Origin: a virus
Virus record (IMG/VR): IMGVR_UViG_3300045988_159123
Location: 1 to 42,023 of that record
DNA length: 42,023 nucleotides
Direction: 5' to 3' (one strand)
Shown here: positions 2,057 through 40,991 of the stretch, piece by piece
How the letters are laid out: the number at the start of each line of letters is the position of its first letter
Position numbering within the stretch: the first letter of the stretch is position 1
Program-made: the position numbers and the translations under genes
The notes under the pieces: generated by a model
Database searches by the model: none
Seen by the model: only the letters and a program-made list of their open reading frames with translations
What the model was told of the DNA's origin: nothing

Positions 2057-2806
2057 TTAAATTAATTTAAATTCAATACTTGCTTCATTTCCACTCATAT
2101 CTTTTAAAATTAAAATATTGTTACCTTCTTTACAGCCTTTAAATTCTTTTGTAATATTATTAATATCTCCCCATTGACTTTGTGAAACAGTTCCGCCATT
2201 TACTCCATTTACTGTATATCCAGCCAAAGCAACATTGTCATAAATCTTAAAACTTATCTTACTGTAGCCGTTTGTAGCATCTCCGACAGTTTCGTTTTCT
2301 CCGTCTTTTATTGTTATGTCTGGATCTATATCGTCAAATATTACATATTCATGAGCTGAATTATTTATATCTGCATTTGTTAGTTTAACACCAACATTTC
2401 CTGCAGTATCAGCATATCCATAAACTTCAAGCTGAATTTCGCCTACATCTAAACCTAAATATTCTGTTAAATCACAATCTGCATAATATGCAGATAAGCC
2501 GTTAGTGGAACTTAAAGGCCTATATGTAGCAACAAATTCTTTGTTTGCAATTTTTACTTTAGGCTCAACTGCTAATTGTTCTGAAAAATATATAAGAACT
2601 CGAACGCTATCTCCAATTTTTGCATAATGTGTATCTCTAGTTTCTCCAGCATTATTGTTTCTAACAATTCCAAGCGAATTGTAAACAGGAGCTACTGCAT
2701 CTCCTTCTCGTTTAAATACAATTTCTCCATTTTTGGCAAATCCATTAACTTTACTTCCGTTTATATAAAAATTATTTACTTTTGTTCCATTTATTACTGT
2801 TCCCAT
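2057..2806 (-). CDS. Receptor-binding/tail-fibre-type protein, paralogue B with Ig-like domain
   Basis: The preferred start is ATG 2806, with RBS AGGTG just after the stop of the upstream gene. The N-terminus is MGTVINGTKVNNFYINGSKVNGFAKNGEIVFKRE. The central Ig-like segment (EVYGYADTAGNVG) parallels KIYGYADLDGNIG in 41082..41891. Confidence 0.55.
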   Translation of the reverse strand: MGTVINGTKVNNFYINGSKVNGFAKNGEIVFKREGDAVAPVYNSLGIVRNNNAGETRDTHYAKIGDSVRVLIYFSEQLAVEPKVKIANKEFVATYRPLSSTNGLSAYYADCDLTEYLGLDVGEIQLEVYGYADTAGNVGVKLTNADINNSAHEYVIFDDIDPDITIKDGENETVGDATNGYSKISFKIYDNVALAGYTVNGVNGGTVSQSQWGDINNITKEFKGCKEGNNILILKDMSGNEASIEFKLI

Positions 2807-2814
2807 TTTAACAC

Positions 2815-3084
2815 CTACCAATAATAAATATTATTAGGATTTGCTGCACTTTGAGATATTGCGGTTTGTTCATCTGTTACTTTTACACAATTTATACTTG
2901 TTCCTGCTGGACCAGCTGGACCTTGTTGTCCATCTTGTCCATTTTCACCTTTATCGCCTTTGAATTTTGCTCTTGCATTCGCTACTGTAATTCTTTTAGT
3001 TTCGGAATTTTGAACAATTGGAAAAATGTCATTATCTTGTAATTGAGTAGCTTCAGTTAATTCAGTTATTTTTTTATCTGCCAT
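2815..3084 (-). CDS. Collagen-like repeat tail fibre protein
   Basis: Gly-X-Y run GDKGENGQDGQQGPAGPAGT. Lies in the fibre cluster. Confidence 0.65.
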   Translation of the reverse strand: MADKKITELTEATQLQDNDIFPIVQNSETKRITVANARAKFKGDKGENGQDGQQGPAGPAGTSINCVKVTDEQTAISQSAANPNNIYYW

Positions 3085-3095
3085 ATTTTTCTCCT

Positions 3096-3281
3096 TTATT
3101 CTAAAACTAATTTTTCATTATTTTCTGTATTTAAAACATTATTATCTTCTGTTAATATTCTAGAAGTTCCTATAACTTTTATTTTCAACTTAAATTTAGA
3201 GTTTGTATAAATTTTAGAAGGCTCTATATTTATTGATTCGAAAAAAATATCTCTTTCTTCCATTAAATACACTTCCTCCAT
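3096..3281 (-). CDS. Hypothetical small structural protein
   Basis: Packed ORF overlapping its upstream neighbour by 19 nt. Confidence 0.35.
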   Translation of the reverse strand: MEEVYLMEERDIFFESINIEPSKIYTNSKFKLKIKVIGTSRILTEDNNVLNTENNEKLVLE

Positions 3282-4354
3282 TTTCCATCTTTTTTAATTA
3301 CAAAAACTGCTTTTTTTGGTGTTGCATCTGCTATGTAATATATTACTTTTGCTCTTTTACTTGTTTTGTCTTGAGTATAATAATGTGCTGTTAATTGATT
3401 ACCGTTAAATGTACATTGTACTTTTTTTGAGATTGACCAATCTTGATACTCATTATTTGTTATTAATATAAATTCTACAGTTGTTTTATTAAAACTAGTT
3501 AAAGCTTTGTACAACTTGTCTAAATCATCTTGTGTAAAAGTAAATACTAAATTGTTTGATTCTAAAGCTCTACGTTCTACAATTACATTTTCTCCAACTT
3601 TAATAGTAAGATAATTCCACCAGTTTGATTCATTTGTCTTTGTTATATTAACAACATCTCCAAAAAAGAAATCGCTTAGATTGGTAAATCTAGCGATATC
3701 TAATGTTCTTACGTTGTATACAGAAGAATAACTATCTATTCCATTAACTGTGGCCTTTAATTGTATTGAATAATTTGTGTTAGGAGTTAGTCCTTGCACT
3801 GCAAACGTTGCTTCTTTATTCCAGTTTCCCCAATAAGGATTAATATTTTGCCAAGCTCCATTATTTACTTTATATTGTATTGCATCTACTGTTTTATCTA
3901 AATTATAATAAACATCAAAATGTTCTAATGTTGTATTTTGTATGTCAACAGATGCAAAATTTGCTTGTCTAGCAATTTGTGTAAGCCATACAGTTTGTTT
4001 AGCTTCACCCCAAAGCGGTCCATAACCAGATCCACTAGGTAAATCTCCAGATGCTGCAATTTCAATACTTAAGCTTCCGTCCCAATTATGTCCGATGTTA
4101 TCTACTGTAGCACTTACAAGTTGTACAACGGCACCTGGGCTTAAGCTTATATTTAATGTATTACTAAACTCTCTTCCTGCAATCCACAATCTTTGTGTTT
4201 TATTGTTTGCCCATGAAGTATGTTTACACCTTATGTATGAAGTAGCTCTTACAGAAGAAGTATTAGCTTGTTGATTTATATTAAATTCTTCCCATTCAAT
4301 ATAGTATTCGTAAGCTTCATTGTGCTGTGTTACATAACCGTTTATTCTAGCCAT
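3263..4354 (-). CDS. Minor structural protein (DUF859-like siphovirus protein with FN3-like segment)
   Basis: The N-terminus MARINGYVTQHNEAYEYYIEWEE...QQANTSSV and the segment LTPNTNYSIQLKATVNG recall the DUF859 family. This comes from memory only. Confidence 0.45.
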   Translation of the reverse strand: MARINGYVTQHNEAYEYYIEWEEFNINQQANTSSVRATSYIRCKHTSWANNKTQRLWIAGREFSNTLNISLSPGAVVQLVSATVDNIGHNWDGSLSIEIAASGDLPSGSGYGPLWGEAKQTVWLTQIARQANFASVDIQNTTLEHFDVYYNLDKTVDAIQYKVNNGAWQNINPYWGNWNKEATFAVQGLTPNTNYSIQLKATVNGIDSYSSVYNVRTLDIARFTNLSDFFFGDVVNITKTNESNWWNYLTIKVGENVIVERRALESNNLVFTFTQDDLDKLYKALTSFNKTTVEFILITNNEYQDWSISKKVQCTFNGNQLTAHYYTQDKTSKRAKVIYYIADATPKKAVFVIKKDGKWRKCI

Positions 4355-35486: not shown

Positions 35487-35510
35487 CACTATAACGAAAG
35501 GATGTTTTGT

Positions 35511-36668
35511 ATGGCAAAAAGAGGTAATGGAGAAGGCTCTATTTTCTATTCTGAAAAATTAAATCGTTGGGTAGGCCAATTTACTGCTGGAAGAAAAGTG
35601 GATGGTAAATTGAATCGTAAATCTGTATATGGTAAAACCCGTAAAGAAGTAAAAGATAAAATGAATAAAGCTCTTGTAGATGTTAATAAAGGGCTTTTTA
35701 TTGACAAACAAGATATAACATTCAAAGAATTAATTGAAAACTATATAAGTTACAAATATGATACTAATCAGATTAGTGATAGAAGTTTTTTGAGAAATCA
35801 AGAAACTTTAAAACAAATAATAAAATGCGACTCTGCTTTTGCCAATAAAAATATACAAAAAATAACTACAGAAGATATAAAACATTTTTTGACTACCATT
35901 ACTATTTATTCTGATAGCTCTATAAAGAAAATGTATTCAATGATGAATAAAGCTTTTAAAATTGCAATGTCTGAAAAATATATAATATTCAATCCAACTA
36001 ATAGCGAAATTATAAAAAAACCAAATTCAGACAAAGAAAATAAAAAAATTGAAGCGTTAACCGTAGAAGAACAAAGAAATTTAATAAATGTTTTAGATTT
36101 AAATAGTAAATATGATTTAATTATTCTAATGCAATTATATACTGGTATGAGAATTGGAGAAGTTTTAGCATTAAAAAAAGAAGATATTGATATTAATAAT
36201 AATAAAATCTATATTCAAAGAACTTTAACAAGAAATAAAAATGATAAAGTTATATTAGGCAATAAAACAAAAACTGAAAATTCTGTTAGAAATATAACAA
36301 TTAATAGTTCTATTCATATTATACTATCAAATGCCTTTAAAATTGATTCTCATAACAAATACGGATTATTATTTTATGATGACGAAGAAGATAATTTTAT
36401 ATCTCCTAATGAATTAAATTCCTATTTACAAAGACTAAATAAAAAGTATTCTATCGCTAAACATATTCACACACATATGTTAAGACATACTTATGCTACA
36501 CGATGTATAGAAAGTGGAATGTCTGCAAAAGTTTTACAGAAAAAATTAGGCCATAAAAATATAACAACAACAATGGACACCTATGCATCTGTTTTCGAAA
36601 AATTTCAATTACAAGAAGACGACAAATTTAATGCATATTTAGATAAAGAAAATATTGGGTTGCATTAA
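35511..36668 (+). CDS. int: Tyrosine integrase
   Basis: Start MAKRGNGEGSI, with RBS AAAGGA. Catalytic-region motifs YTGMRIGEVLAL, HMLRHTYAT and LGHKNITTTMDTY. Confidence 0.9.
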   Translation: MAKRGNGEGSIFYSEKLNRWVGQFTAGRKVDGKLNRKSVYGKTRKEVKDKMNKALVDVNKGLFIDKQDITFKELIENYISYKYDTNQISDRSFLRNQETLKQIIKCDSAFANKNIQKITTEDIKHFLTTITIYSDSSIKKMYSMMNKAFKIAMSEKYIIFNPTNSEIIKKPNSDKENKKIEALTVEEQRNLINVLDLNSKYDLIILMQLYTGMRIGEVLALKKEDIDINNNKIYIQRTLTRNKNDKVILGNKTKTENSVRNITINSSIHIILSNAFKIDSHNKYGLLFYDDEEDNFISPNELNSYLQRLNKKYSIAKHIHTHMLRHTYATRCIESGMSAKVLQKKLGHKNITTTMDTYASVFEKFQLQEDDKFNAYLDKENIGLH

Positions 36669-36908
36669 AATTGCATTAAAAGTAAAATAAAAAACTATGT
36701 AATAAGCTATTTAAAGGCGTTACATAGTTTTTATTCTTGGTACCGATGGTGGTTTTTTACTTTTTTATAATTTCTCTTCTTTTTTTATAAATTTTTATAG
36801 CATGCTATTTTAGGCACTTTCCCAGCTTTTAAAACTTTTACACTTCTTACAATTTCACTTCATTTTTTACAACTTTTCTTTGGCGTTGCATTAAACGTTG
36901 CATTAAAA
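36660..36908. repeat. attP region: two tandem pairs of TTGCATTAAA arm-type repeats flanking about 215 bp
   Basis: Copies at 36660-36670, 36671-36681, 36886-36896 and 36898-36908, all in the same orientation, immediately 3' of int. Confidence 0.55.
36693..36735 (+). terminator. int terminator
   Basis: 10-bp stem, AACTATGTAA with TTACATAGTT, followed by tttatt. Confidence 0.6.
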
Positions 36909-37012
36909 TTATATCTTGCAAATTTTACTTATATAACATATCTATGTTCTTTCTTTATTATTTTGATACATTAAATATTTTTCAAAAAAATTAAAAAATA
37001 TTAAAAAAAGCG

Positions 37013-37042
37013 TTGACAATATACGTACGTATATTGTATAAT
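37013..37042 (+). promoter_or_regulatory. Consensus promoter with embedded 16-bp perfect palindrome (operator)
   Basis: TTGACA (37013-37018), an 18-nt spacer consisting of ATATACGTACGTATAT (37019-37034) plus tg, then TATAAT (37037-37042). Confidence 0.7.
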
Positions 37043-37074
37043 ATATACATACCAAGAAGAGAGGTGGTGATAAT

Positions 37075-37182
37075 ATGAAAAAATTAATAAAAAAAGTGCT
37101 TTCCTATCTAGCACATAGAAAAGCACAAAACACTAGAAAAAAAGAAGTTAAAGCGATGTTTGATATGCTAAACAATCTTTAA
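37075..37182 (+). CDS. 35-aa basic micro-ORF
   Basis: RBS GAGGTGGTGA. Translation MKKLIKKVLSYLAHRKAQNTRKKEVKAMFDMLNNL. Confidence 0.45.
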   Translation: MKKLIKKVLSYLAHRKAQNTRKKEVKAMFDMLNNL

Positions 37183-37187
37183 TCTAG

Positions 37188-37212
37188 GCAAGAGAGGAGC
37201 AATCCTCTCTGC
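37188..37212 (+). promoter_or_regulatory. Intercistronic hairpin with GCAA tetraloop
   Basis: GAGAGGA (37192-37198) pairs with TCCTCTC (37203-37209), extended by A-T and GC pairs around a bulge. There is no adjacent U-run. Confidence 0.45.
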
Positions 37213-37258
37213 ATATTAATTATAATATATTTTATTTTAAAATTCAAGGAGGTTAAAT

Positions 37259-37453
37259 ATGAAAGATAAATATGCAAACCAAAAAAAATATATGAAAAAA
37301 AATTTAGTAAAATTAGGTATTGATATAAAACCAGAAATTAGAGAAGAATTTAGAAAATGTTGTGAATTAAATAATACTTTGCCTTCACGTGTTCTTAAAG
37401 AATTTGTAAATAAATATATAGAAGAAACGCAAAAAAGAGGCAATAGAAATTAA
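37259..37453 (+). CDS. Ribbon-helix-helix (CopG/Arc-like) DNA-binding protein
   Basis: RBS AAGGAGG. The segment KKNLVKLGIDIKPEIREEFRKCCELNNTLPSRVLKEFVNKYIEE fits a beta-alpha-alpha RHH pattern. Confidence 0.5.
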   Translation: MKDKYANQKKYMKKNLVKLGIDIKPEIREEFRKCCELNNTLPSRVLKEFVNKYIEETQKRGNRN

Positions 37454-37471
37454 TCTACTGCCTCTTCTTTA

Positions 37472-37645
37472 TTATATATTATTTGCCAACTTTCTAATTT
37501 TTCTAAAACTTTTGGTTTGACTTATGAACCTTAAACTTTCTAAATTTAAAATTCTATAGTCTCGTACTAATTTAATGTATTCCTTTTTATTTTTTACATT
37601 TAGATTTTTTATCATTTGTAGAGATTTAATATACAGTTCTTTCAT
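37472..37645 (-). CDS. 57-aa hypothetical protein (not in track)
   Basis: RBS AAGGAGATG. Translation MKELYIKSLQMIKNLNVKNKKEYIKLVRDYRILNLESLRFISQTKSFRKIRKLANNI. Confidence 0.4.
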   Translation of the reverse strand: MKELYIKSLQMIKNLNVKNKKEYIKLVRDYRILNLESLRFISQTKSFRKIRKLANNI

Positions 37646-37712
37646 ACTATCATCTCCTTATTGATAGTATAGCATTTTATGTTTACTTTTGTCTCGCGAA
37701 ATTTGTCGAAAC

Positions 37713-37750
37713 AAAAAAGTAATTAGAATTTAATCTAATTACCTTTTTTT
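37713..37750. terminator. Bidirectional terminator after the toxin-candidate gene
   Basis: 9-bp stem, GTAATTAGA (37719-37727) with TCTAATTAC (37734-37742), flanked by A6 and T7. Confidence 0.7.
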
Positions 37751-38174
37751 ATTCTGGACATATTCTATGGTTTCTATCTAACCAACATATAAAAAATACT
37801 GCATTTTGTCTAAATCCAACTACTCTTGCTTTTTGGCTTACTCTTAATTCATAAAAACTAATATCTTTGCTAATTTTTTCTTTTATTGAATTTTCTGGTA
37901 ATCCTTTTGCATTATCTATCATTTTATATCTCAAACCAGTATGACGTTTTATGTCATTCCATGTCAAATTATTAATCTTGTCTATAAAATTAGAAAAACA
38001 TGCCAATTCATCTTTGCTCCATTCACTAAAACATTCAAAATTTTTATCAAAATATTTTAATGCAATATATGCTTGCTTTTCATCTGAATTTTCTCCATTA
38101 TTTGCTAGCCCTAATATTTTTATATCTTTATTTTCATTATTGTTTAATTTAGTCTGTGCTTTTATTCTCTTCAT
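37749..38174 (-). CDS. Uncharacterised 141-aa partner of the PanA-like antitoxin (toxin candidate)
   Basis: Its start shares the A of the upstream TAA (TAATG). The C-terminus FYELRVSQKARVVGFRQNAVFFICWLDRNH faintly resembles RelE/ParE-fold strands. Confidence 0.45.
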   Translation of the reverse strand: MKRIKAQTKLNNNENKDIKILGLANNGENSDEKQAYIALKYFDKNFECFSEWSKDELACFSNFIDKINNLTWNDIKRHTGLRYKMIDNAKGLPENSIKEKISKDISFYELRVSQKARVVGFRQNAVFFICWLDRNHRICPE

Positions 38175-38635
38175 TAAGCTTCCTGCATTTCTGTATAGAA
38201 ATTTTTCATAGTTTCTAATGAAATTGTGTTCTCACATCTAGCTTCTAATGGCAAGTCTCCTCTGGCTTCTTTCCAAGGTTTTTCTTGATGTGTTAATCTT
38301 TCTAAATACTTCGCTTCATAAATACCATAAATTTGCATTACTTGTTCTAAAACATCCTCTGTTTCTTTACTTAAATTAGGACATTCATCTGGCTGCGGTA
38401 TTTCTGAATAATGGTATTTTGAATATTCATCATAAACTTCTGGTACAACTGGTCCATGCGTCCATGCTTGAATTTTTTCATAAAACATAGGCTTACCTAA
38501 CAATACTAGACTCCAAGCTTGTGCATAATATAATAATTTTTGTAACTTCAAATGTGTAATACTATCCCCAGAATCTCTATCTACTGCACATAGAAACCAT
38601 TTTGCTATATCTTTTGCACTATATTCTCCTTTCAT
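38174..38635 (-). CDS. DUF4065 / Panacea (PanA, GepA/SocA-like) antitoxin-domain protein
   Basis: Contains THLKLQKLLYYAQAWSLVLLGKPMFYEKIQAWTHGPVVPEVYDEY. The preferred start is ATG 38635, after a GGGGGG run. Confidence 0.7.
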   Translation of the reverse strand: MKGEYSAKDIAKWFLCAVDRDSGDSITHLKLQKLLYYAQAWSLVLLGKPMFYEKIQAWTHGPVVPEVYDEYSKYHYSEIPQPDECPNLSKETEDVLEQVMQIYGIYEAKYLERLTHQEKPWKEARGDLPLEARCENTISLETMKNFYTEMQEA

Positions 38636-38735
38636 AAAATCGCCCCCCATAAATACAAAAAAAGCTTATTAATTTTGTAAAAATTTCAAAGCCTTCTTCT
38701 TGTATATTATTCACCTATTGTTTATTTCTGATACT

Positions 38736-38764
38736 ATTTTACTACATCATTTTAAATTTGTAAA
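38736..38764 (-). promoter_or_regulatory. Promoter for the PanA operon
   Basis: The minus strand reads TTTACA (38764-38759), a 17-nt spacer, then TAAAAT (38741-38736). Confidence 0.5.
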
Positions 38765-38782
38765 CAAAATTTTTAATCACAC

Positions 38783-38823
38783 AAAAAAAGAGGTGTAGCA
38801 TAACTAAATTACACTACACCTCT
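38783..38823 (-). terminator. Lysis-operon terminator
   Basis: 10-bp stem, AGAGGTGTAG with CTACACCTCT, followed by U7 on the minus strand, just after the endolysin stop. Confidence 0.75.
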
Positions 38824-38830
38824 TCTAATT

Positions 38831-40342
38831 TTATTTATAAACATTATTTTTAACATAAGCATATCTACCAGTTTTAACTACATAGACATAATCTACTGTA
38901 CTTGATACATTTTTTATAATTTTTACTTGTGTTAGCGGTAAATATGTATATTTAGTTCCTGTTAAATTTGATTTTGAATATAAATATGTTTTTGATTTTA
39001 ATCTTTTATACTGCCCTACAGTATTGTTTGTAGCTGTAGAACTAGAACTTGTATAATTAGAAATATTTATATATGCAATTCTTCCCGTTGAGTTCACTCT
39101 TACTTTATCTACATTAGAAGATATATTCTCTAATATAGTTACTGTTGTATTTGCTTTGTAAGTATATTTGGTTCCAGATAAATTACTTTTACTATATAAA
39201 TAACAAGCTTTTATCTTTCTTGTTTGTCCTATTGTATTATAAACATTTGAATTTGTATATGTAGATACTAAATAATCAGAATATACCCATCTATTTGTAC
39301 CTATTCTAGACCAATTTCCAGATGTTTCATACACTATAACACTTGTTCCATCTGCTAGTGCTCCTACCTTACCATATCCTGTACCTGGACCACTTCTTAC
39401 ATTTACCCCTACACCTGTGCTTGTTTTTACGTATCTAGTATAAGTAGATGTTGTTATATTACCTGTATTTTCTTGTACATTTCCATCGTGCTTATATGCA
39501 AAAAATCTTGTATAGTTTGCGTATCTTCTAAAATTATCTACAGAACAATACACAGTATTTCCACTAACTGTTACATTACCTCTTCTTGTAGAAGTATCAA
39601 ATTTGCCACTATACAAATATGGATCGTATATCCTTAGCGTATCTCCATCTATTCCAGTAATAACCATTAAATGTCCACCTGTTGTAAATAAACCATTACC
39701 ACAACTTACTATTAAATAGTTATTATCTTTTAATAAATCTACTGCTGTATCTAAGCTATATGTCTCTTGATATCCAATATCAAAGACATCTGCAACCCAT
39801 CTAAAAGCTGATAAATATGTACCATTTGATGCACTTCTATATCCATTATTTACGAATAAGTCAGCCATTTCAGGTGGTGTTATAGTTCCTTTTATAGCTG
39901 TAACAATCATTGCAGCACTCGTCGGTCCACATCCACTAGTTCCAACAGTTTGCGAACTATCTCCTACAGAACTATACATATGATTCTTCCATCTAGCATC
40001 AATTTGTGAGTAATATGTTAAACCTGAATAACTACCTAAATTTACACTAGGAAATTGACTAGAGCCTTCATAAGCTATTTGTCCTTGTAATTCAAAATCT
40101 TCGTTTTCTACTTCTTGTTCTTTTCCTATTTTTTCTTCTTCTGCTTCTGTTTGCTCTGTTATTTCTGTTGTACTTAATGCTTCTATATCCTCATTAGTCA
40201 TCTTATATGTTTGTATATTATTTTCTTCTGCATTTCCTTGTGTTGTTTCTGTTATTCTTGTCGACAAGCCAAAGTAAACACCTAAGCATAATATTATAAC
40301 TATAACTATTGCTACAAAAATCTTATACTTTTTATTGTTCAT
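38831..40342 (-). CDS. Endolysin: N-terminal signal-anchor, C39-like cysteine peptidase domain, and SH3b-type wall-binding repeats
   Basis: TM segment KIFVAIVIVIILCLGVYFGL. Peptidase region YYSQIDARW...GTSGCGPTSAAMIV. SH3b-like VNVRSGPGTGYGKVGALADGTSV plus two repeats of the form YLYSKSNL(S/T)GTKYTY. It follows the holin. Confidence 0.7.
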   Translation of the reverse strand: MNNKKYKIFVAIVIVIILCLGVYFGLSTRITETTQGNAEENNIQTYKMTNEDIEALSTTEITEQTEAEEEKIGKEQEVENEDFELQGQIAYEGSSQFPSVNLGSYSGLTYYSQIDARWKNHMYSSVGDSSQTVGTSGCGPTSAAMIVTAIKGTITPPEMADLFVNNGYRSASNGTYLSAFRWVADVFDIGYQETYSLDTAVDLLKDNNYLIVSCGNGLFTTGGHLMVITGIDGDTLRIYDPYLYSGKFDTSTRRGNVTVSGNTVYCSVDNFRRYANYTRFFAYKHDGNVQENTGNITTSTYTRYVKTSTGVGVNVRSGPGTGYGKVGALADGTSVIVYETSGNWSRIGTNRWVYSDYLVSTYTNSNVYNTIGQTRKIKACYLYSKSNLSGTKYTYKANTTVTILENISSNVDKVRVNSTGRIAYINISNYTSSSSTATNNTVGQYKRLKSKTYLYSKSNLTGTKYTYLPLTQVKIIKNVSSTVDYVYVVKTGRYAYVKNNVYK

Positions 40343-40352
40343 TTTAGACCTC

Positions 40353-40637
40353 CTATACTATAAATTTTTGTATAGCTTCTTTTACTTTATCGTAACCTAA
40401 TTGACTTACTAAACTAGATGCTAAACCAATTAAAACAGCATAGATTACATTGTTAGTTGAAAAATGTATGCTTCCTAACTGATAATATAATAATGTTCCT
40501 ACTAAACCTATTACTATTGCTACTACAAAAGCTGTTATATTTCCATCTGCACTAAATAACTTCTTTATTGCTTCTGTTACTAAACTAGCTAATGTAGAAA
40601 AGCCAAGTAATAAAGCTAAAAAAATCTCTACTGTCAT
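40353..40637 (-). CDS. Holin
   Basis: 94 aa with three hydrophobic segments and a charged C-terminus, immediately upstream of the endolysin. Confidence 0.7.
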   Translation of the reverse strand: MTVEIFLALLLGFSTLASLVTEAIKKLFSADGNITAFVVAIVIGLVGTLLYYQLGSIHFSTNNVIYAVLIGLASSLVSQLGYDKVKEAIQKFIV

Positions 40638-40652
40638 CTCAATTTCTCCCTT

Positions 40653-40991
40653 CTATAATAATCCTAATTTTTTTACTTCTTCCCATTTATCATGCACATA
40701 TGAATTTCCACCATTTTTTACATATCTTTCATATATTTCATATGTACGTTTAATTTGTACTTCTGTCTTTGGTACTCCATTCTCTAAGTCACTTAAGAAA
40801 TTAATTAGATATGTTTTATCTGCATCTATTGTATGCTCTAACATATCTTCCTTACTTTCTTTTCGCATAAAATCAAGTTTATTATTTATATCATTTATGT
40901 TTTCTATTTTTTTATTAGTTTTTTTACTTATTACTGTATTGATTATGGTTCCTAATGCAGTAATAAATGCTACTATTATTGTACTTTCCAT
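40653..40991 (-). CDS. N-terminally anchored lysis-cassette protein
   Basis: TM segment IIVAFITALGTIINTVI followed by a soluble domain. First gene of the lysis block. Confidence 0.4.
   Translation of the reverse strand: MESTIIVAFITALGTIINTVISKKTNKKIENINDINNKLDFMRKESKEDMLEHTIDADKTYLINFLSDLENGVPKTEVQIKRTYEIYERYVKNGGNSYVHDKWEEVKKLGLL

Follow-up and report, generated by a model that had tools for sequence, protein, structure and literature searches.

What two overlapping genes on the minus strand of a temperate phage genome do, one of them for a protein with a Panacea (DUF4065) domain and the other for a protein of 141 amino acids (aa) that had been assigned to no family, is the question raised by the IMG/VR virus record IMGVR_UViG_3300045988_159123. 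The window, meaning the whole stretch of DNA analysed, comprises positions 1-42,023 of this record (42,023 nucleotides, nt), and its numbering is used throughout. An initial annotation had proposed a toxin-antitoxin or abortive-infection module with an unknown toxin. As set out below, the pair is likely a PanA-PanT module of the published class T1, an accessory at the attachment-site end of the phage genome in which a RelE-like ribonuclease (RNase) would be blocked by PanA (Table 1).

The first gene is the easier of the two to place. The DUF4065 core that had been read in its product is borne out by Pfam PF13274 SocA_Panacea, which is matched over the whole model (positions 1-113) at 4.2e-23 and 82.8 bits, exceeding the gathering cut-off of 25.7, and by phrog_1281 at 6.5e-51. 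The NCBIfam equivalog model for SocA is matched partially, and because the score of 63.2 bits does not reach the cut-off of 190, the gene is regarded as PanA and not as a SocA orthologue. Kurata et al. defined PanA pairs by a partner at most 100 nt away that is conserved in at least two species; here the two genes overlap by 1 nt, and more than 15 distinct loci, spread over several phyla, carry the same pair among otherwise unrelated genes. By these sequence comparisons the first gene encodes a PanA-type stand-alone Panacea protein. A phmmer search of PanA against the sequences of the PDB returned nothing. The two products are complementary in charge, PanA being acidic with an isoelectric point of 4.9 and PanT, the product of the second gene, basic with one of 9.2.

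The second product had been described as matching no nameable family, with a RelE/ParE-like flavour at its C-terminus, and this first part of the description has to be withdrawn. The profile searches proposed as a check on the initial annotation returned not only PF13274 for the first gene but also named families for the second: PanT passes NCBIfam NF046006, the "MAG6450 family", with 58.9 bits against a cut-off of 40 (residues 39-139), is matched end to end by phrog_8366 (9.2e-25), and is matched by the PADLOC profile NsnC (4.4e-14) over positions 191-280 of 284. NsnC is the Menshen effector, and the part matched is its RNase domain, PB-BECR1, at the C-terminus.

PanT can also be placed in a published class, and its description as an unknown or novel toxin therefore falls, since it belongs both to the MAG6450 family and to PanT cluster T1. 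Dataset S1 of Kurata et al. (2022, PNAS, PMC8832971) lists for Clostridium cuniculi strain 1 the PanA WP_133014905.1 and the PanT WP_133014904.1 as cluster pT1/T1, in the order A then T and with a gap of -8. The C. cuniculi homologue found with the window protein (P0212) is WP_133014904.1, and at locus L014 the open reading frames (ORFs) 2532..3002 and 2995..3447 overlap by 8 nt, reproducing the listed gap. A tblastn search of PanT against GenBank phages led to gp16 of Salmonella phage Emek (YP_006560566.1), encoded downstream of a "DUF4065 domain-containing protein" (YP_006560565.1); Emek gp15/gp16 are listed as T1 in the same dataset (PMC8832971). As both homologues, WP_133014904.1 and YP_006560566.1, are listed under T1, the window PanT is, on the accession identity of its homologues and its NF046006 score, a T1 member. 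T1, the commonest of the catalogued classes of PanA pairs, is the first cluster in Dataset S1, where it fills many pages, and carries the authors' label "mRNase"; it also includes a pair from Mycoplasma agalactiae, which fits the NCBIfam name MAG6450 (PMC8832971).

The window pair shares with the T1 pairs a stand-alone ("noNTD") Panacea protein upstream, a homologous partner of some 140-160 aa, occurrence on phages, and the order of antitoxin then toxin with a short overlap, the gap of -1 being that of the Clostridium cadaveris pair (WP_074844973.1/WP_074844970.1; PMC8832971). PanT is 46-51% identical to the C. cuniculi member. The differences are a new host lineage, as the pair comes from a phage of Clostridium sp. 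CAG:354, and a sequence sub-clade, at 59-99% identity, that was seen only in metagenomes. At the DNA level, a distant-mode search of GenBank phages with the region gave no match, the NetFlax supplement, of which a part was available, gives no T1 accession among the entries listed, and among publications after Kurata et al. on PanAT T1 or DUF4065 in prophages a search turned up none that settles function.

Conservation of the pairing is the second line of evidence. An exhaustive profile search for PanT gave 684 clusters (50% identity) at E <= 1e-3, nearly all of 120-180 aa. The contigs of seven homologues, the first three of them 42-47% identical to the window protein, were looked up, and these loci are as diverse as a Sinorhizobium meliloti prophage, a restriction-modification island in Desulfobacteraceae, a metagenome-assembled genome (MAG), a mobile element in Sutcliffiella, a chromosomal site beside an HPPK gene, a Clostridium phage, and a metagenome contig from the Joint Genome Institute (JGI). 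All seven have a SocA_Panacea gene directly upstream, usually overlapping, and their flanking genes are unrelated. A further scan with one genome per species added 12 loci, including those of C. cuniculi, Raineyaceae, Parabeggiatoa, Chitinophaga and Flavobacteriales; by tblastn, a PanA homologue (41-61% identical to the window PanA) ends just before the toxin homologue in every one of the 11 species-representative loci that have upstream DNA. The PanA-PanT order is thus kept, usually with an overlap, in members of the Bacillota, Bacteroidota, Pseudomonadota and Desulfobacterota. That panA and the 141-aa gene are neighbours by chance is ruled out, as the pairing is kept in all sampled loci; judged from synteny, the two genes are inherited together as a conserved pair.

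The fold of PanT provides the third line of evidence, and here the RelE/ParE-like flavour at the C-terminus was read correctly. Structure prediction of the 141-aa protein alone, another of the proposed checks, gave an AlphaFold model on 63 homologues with a predicted local distance difference test (pLDDT) of 83.8 and a predicted template modelling (pTM) score of 0.74; a shallower model on 20 homologues (pLDDT 70) led to the same outcome in Foldseek. With the better model, the best 46 matches in the PDB are RelE, YafQ, YoeB, HigB, HP0892/0894, GraT and ParE (6n90, 8c26), together with Txp40, a toxin with a RelE-superfamily domain. The top match is RelE of Pyrococcus horikoshii (1wmi_A) with E = 8.2e-4, a probability of 1.00 and a template modelling (TM) score of 0.69 on the target, and by model and Foldseek together PanT has a RelE-type fold. 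In the model, the first 30 or so residues form a poorly ordered tail, and the RelE-superfamily (BECR) domain spans about residues 33-138; its elements follow one another as one strand, two helices, a short strand carrying a helix insert, and a sheet of three strands.

Thirteen residues are invariant in the 63 sequences: C48, S50, W52, W72, E109, R111, R117, G120, F121, F127, L132, D133 and H136. In the model, E109 and R111 lie on strand 107-111 and R117 on strand 117-123, while D133 and H136 are C-terminal. The RNase residues of YoeB are E46, R65 and H83, and E109, R111/R117 and H136 of PanT may form a similar Glu-Arg-His set, judged by residue type and strand location. With RelE, YoeB, YafQ and HigB, PanT has in common the predicted fold and the strand order (strand, two helices, three-stranded sheet), as well as its basic character. 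It differs from them in matching none of their sequence models, in an N-terminal extension of about 30 residues that bears a conserved Leu-Gly motif, in its invariant C-x-S-x-W motif, and in its antitoxin, which is a Panacea domain where the RelE-family antitoxins are RelB, YefM, DinJ and HigA.

From these findings a mechanism can be outlined. PanA and PanT would be made from one transcript by coupled translation, and the acidic PanA would bind the basic PanT directly and block it, by analogy with stand-alone Panacea antitoxins, whose published mode of neutralisation is to bind the toxin directly (PMC10440598, PMC8832971). Once PanA is lost or displaced, be it by loss of the prophage, by stress or possibly by an incoming phage, free PanT would cleave RNA and translation would stop. 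Catalysis would depend on a YoeB-like Glu-Arg-His set formed by E109, R111/R117 and H136, with D133, and the target would most likely be ribosome-bound mRNA, as for RelE, YoeB and YafQ. More speculatively, PanA might grip PanT by the conserved Leu-Gly motif of its disordered N-terminal tail, by analogy with the pair of B. choladocola, in which the Panacea domain contacts the N-terminal unstructured region of the toxin (PMC10440598). The phage would benefit through prophage retention, exclusion of competing phages, or both. The pair is a phage-borne T1 member, probably with an active toxin, for which we infer a role in addiction or phage defence.

Which of these roles prevails is where the nearest rival departs from the PanAT module as outlined. 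The two explanations overlap, the difference lying in what triggers the system and what it is for: the pair would serve the prophage in abortive infection or superinfection exclusion, with PanA sensing a phage and releasing the RelE-like RNase, and addiction would not be its main role. Such a function would fit the homology of the PanT domain to that of NsnC, the effector of Menshen, whose antiphage activity is validated by experiment (Li et al. 2025, NAR, PMC12065111), the location of the pair at the prophage end in an accessory block that can be exchanged, and the many homologues in prophages, in a type I restriction-modification island and on a conjugative element. It is harder to reconcile with some homologues being in plain chromosomal contexts and with PanA itself having no significant match in PADLOC. 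That a catalytically intact T1 pair is an abortive-infection system, in which a Panacea domain senses phage and unleashes a Menshen-family RelE-fold RNase, is put forward as a tentative alternative; the effector domain shared with Menshen and the position in an accessory block weakly favour a role in defence.

The likeness to Menshen is confined to the homologous C-terminal RNase domain. PanT, with 141 aa, has no N-terminal inactive-PIN domain and matches only the end of the NsnC profile; it has panA, the endolysin gene and small ORFs as neighbours in place of nsnA (ParB-DUF262) and nsnB (ABC ATPase), and it would be under the control of PanA and not of an ABC ATPase. An H-R-H triad is described for Menshen (PMC12065111), whereas the invariant set of PanT is E/R/R/D/H. 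With neither the NsnC architecture nor the nsnA/nsnB neighbours, membership of the pair in Menshen is ruled out. The homology of T1 toxins to the Menshen effector domain is not stated in the papers cited for the two systems (PMC8832971, PMC12065111).

Several points weigh against a PanA-blocked RelE-like RNase. T1 is a predicted class of which no pair is validated as a toxin-antitoxin system: the C. cadaveris T1 toxin was toxic in Escherichia coli and was not neutralised by its PanA, and the T1 toxins of E. coli MOD1 and phage Emek were non-toxic (PMC8832971, supplementary information (SI) Table S1). PanA has no DNA-binding domain, which leaves autoregulation of the pair unexplained. Sequence models are silent on the relation of PanT to RelE, since Pfam gave no RelE/ParE/YafQ/HigB model (at E <= 1 only a chance match to CYNS_N), the models ParE_toxin, YafQ and HigB being among those not matched, phmmer against PDB sequences gave only chance matches to snake lectins, and a profile of 63 PanT sequences found no solved RelE-family relative there. 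The relation is visible only through the fold and the NsnC profile, and the RNase assignment, which is putative, rests on these two because no RelE-family match was obtained from Pfam or PDB sequences. Moreover, proteins of the RelE/ParE fold can be gyrase poisons and not RNases (PMC10440598). Lastly, the claim that the unit has its own promoter stands in part: TTTACA-N17-TAAAAT is present and matches 10 of 12 consensus positions, but promoter-like matches in this region of 28% GC are not enriched over shuffled sequence (26 versus 20.5 +/- 4.6), so that the match in itself proves little. A promoter at this site is plausible as a candidate from its consensus match and position; it falls within a block that is 99.86% identical in a different phage backbone (L002).

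The published tests, with two of three T1 toxins non-toxic and the toxic one not rescued, could also mean that the pair is no toxin-antitoxin system at all and that PanT, either a protein that binds RNA or ribosomes without toxicity or a RelE fold that has degenerated, serves with PanA in another function of the phage. This is improbable in view of the five residues E109, R111, R117, D133 and H136, which are invariant in the window PanT and its 62 relatives, and because in the archetypal Menshen system no domain other than this one is a candidate for toxicity (PMC12065111). One of the non-toxic proteins tested, moreover, has substitutions among these five. In the alignment, E109 is replaced by Ala, R117 by Ala or Pro and H136 by Phe in the Emek protein and in the related one of E. 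coli phage EC.P3, whereas all three residues are kept in the window PanT and in the members from Clostridium, Sinorhizobium and Desulfobacteraceae. This loss of putative catalytic residues may be the reason for the non-toxic result with Emek, the MOD1 sequence being outside the alignment. Because the window PanT keeps what Emek has lost, the comparison suggests that it is an active form.

A toxin that poisons DNA gyrase in the manner of ParE, and does not cleave RNA, is a still less probable reading. The fold is common to ParE, two entries of which are among the Foldseek matches, and fold does not fix biochemistry (PMC10440598). On the other hand, the best structural matches are the RNases RelE, YafQ, YoeB and HigB, the invariant Glu, Arg and His residues are on the last strands and at the C-terminus, the homologous domain of NsnC is classed as an active BECR RNase, and T1 bears its label as an mRNase (PMC12065111, PMC8832971). 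Least probable is a type VI arrangement like SocAB of Caulobacter, with PanA as a proteolytic adaptor that delivers the toxin to ClpXP and not as a stoichiometric inhibitor: the antitoxins share the Panacea domain and hence the partial match to the SocA model, but with the score far under the equivalog cut-off, a RelE-fold partner unrelated to SocB, and stable complexes, as expected of type II, formed by all five of five PanAT pairs in Kurata et al. (PMC8832971), membership in SocAB is ruled out.

The layout of the two-gene unit is in most respects as given in the initial annotation. Both minus-strand ORFs are present, and the TAA stop of panA and the ATG of panT share base 38174 in a TAATG overlap; the panT start is preceded by AGGAAG. 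The longest panA ORF is 38174..38650 (158 aa from the first ATG), where only T-rich sequence and no ribosome-binding site stands in front of the ATG. The ATG at 38635 has a GGGGGG run ending 8 nt upstream as ribosome-binding site, and gene calls on metagenomic contigs with the identical gene likewise give a PanA of 153 aa, for which reasons the shorter form is preferred, as it had been before. The position downstream of a terminator of the lysis genes was recovered by a terminator scan. The closing hairpin is also upheld by its folding, with -19.2 kcal/mol, z = -6.57 and none of 200 shuffles equally stable, and by an A-run and a T-run on its flanks; the consensus terminator scan did not call it because its stem, almost pure A-T, has fewer than three G-C pairs.

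Table 1. Positions of the PanA-PanT pair and associated features (window numbering unless another locus is named)
Feature	Position	Strand	Basis and remarks
Terminator of endolysin gene	38826..38786	-	Called by terminator scan (stem of 19 pairs, 5 of them G-C, with a T-run); bounds the unit upstream and comes first in the block shared with L002
Candidate sigma-70-type promoter TTTACA-N17-TAAAAT	38764-38736	-	About 100 nt upstream of panA
panA, 153 aa, stand-alone Panacea/DUF4065, putative antitoxin	38174..38635	-	Pfam PF13274, phrog_1281
panT, 141 aa, cluster T1 / MAG6450 family	37749..38174	-	NF046006, NsnC profile, phrog_8366, AlphaFold/Foldseek
AT-rich hairpin, putative bidirectional terminator of the pair	37713..37750		RNA fold
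Exchangeable block next to the attachment site	36737..38832		Terminator, promoter, panA, panT, 57-aa ORF, Arc-like 64-aa ORF, DNA to the attachment-site crossover
Enterobacterial T1/MAG6450 phage members	L026 2366-2851 (Emek gp16); L027 2501-2923 (EC.P3)		Alignment with window PanT

In the leader of panA the sequence TTTACAAAWTTAA (minus-strand reading) occurs twice, at 38752-38764 and 38669-38681, 83 nt apart, and one copy includes the proposed -35 hexamer. The two copies could be an operator, a second promoter, or chance in AT-rich DNA, and are not claimed as an operator; when the leader was searched for repeats that could form an operator palindrome, short AT-rich ones, these two among them, were all that turned up. 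An Rfam scan of 36600-39000 gave sub-threshold chance matches only and no known leader RNA or riboswitch.

The genomic setting is that of an apparently complete temperate phage genome, circularly permuted, its ends 42023/1 being contiguous in the prophage copies L003 and L006. Host genes beside the prophages are those of Clostridium sp. CAG:354 and of "Clostridia bacterium" MAGs from the human gut, and by this flanking sequence the host is uncultured human-gut Clostridium sp. CAG:354 or related Clostridia. The integrase gene occupies 35502-36668, and in four loci homology to integrated copies breaks off at 36737, some 70 nt past its stop, a point which probably marks the core of the phage attachment site (attP). 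Homology ends at 37001 instead in L001 and runs on to 36685 in L005, which carries a 77%-identical remnant of the 5' end of the integrase gene. The pair was placed between the lysis cassette and attP in the initial annotation, and this position is confirmed because homology to the integrated copies stops just 3' of the integrase gene.

The DNA from this crossover through the terminator of the endolysin gene appears to have been swapped between phage backbones as one unit, because L002, which has other tail and lysis genes (holin_4_1 and Amidase_2, compared with the C39-peptidase/SH3 endolysin of the window), shares only this part: L002 9343-11439 is 99.86% identical to window 36737-38832 over 2097 nt. 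The base composition of the block is unremarkable, with 20-32% GC in a genome of 27.8% GC. Two small ORFs accompany the pair there. The first, of 57 aa (37472-37645, minus strand), has a strong AAGGAG ribosome-binding site, a TG-extended promoter-like site at 37695-37666 and its own G-C-rich terminator at 37471-37430; it is kept with the block in all six of six prophage loci, and nothing in Pfam, NCBIfam, PHROGs or PADLOC matches it. The second, of 64 aa (37259-37453, plus strand), has a weak match to Arc-like repressors (phrog_582, 1.5e-4), and about 220 nt upstream of it lies a perfect sigma-70 consensus (12/12), TTGACA-18-TATAAT, at 37013-37042 (plus strand). The PanA/T1 pair of Emek likewise adjoins an mnt-arc-ant immunity region (L026). 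On the other side of the pair, the endolysin gene (38831-40342, minus strand) encodes a protein of 503 aa that has a hydrophobic segment at the N-terminus, an SH3_3 domain and a Peptidase_C39_2 domain, which is unusual as the catalytic domain of a lysin; two small holin-like genes, at 40353-40637 and 40653-40991, come before it.

Taken as annotation the result is unremarkable: an accessory module of the PanAT type, carried by a temperate phage of gut Clostridia. Its partner gene, once unknown, can now be named as a PanT of the T1 / MAG6450 family, a putative RNase with the RelE fold. T1 is a large predicted PanAT class without a validated pair, for which intact members like the window PanT would be the better test cases. 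Should the pair act in abortive infection, this would be the first function for PanAT class T1, and PanAT and Menshen would be linked through a shared, shuffled effector domain.

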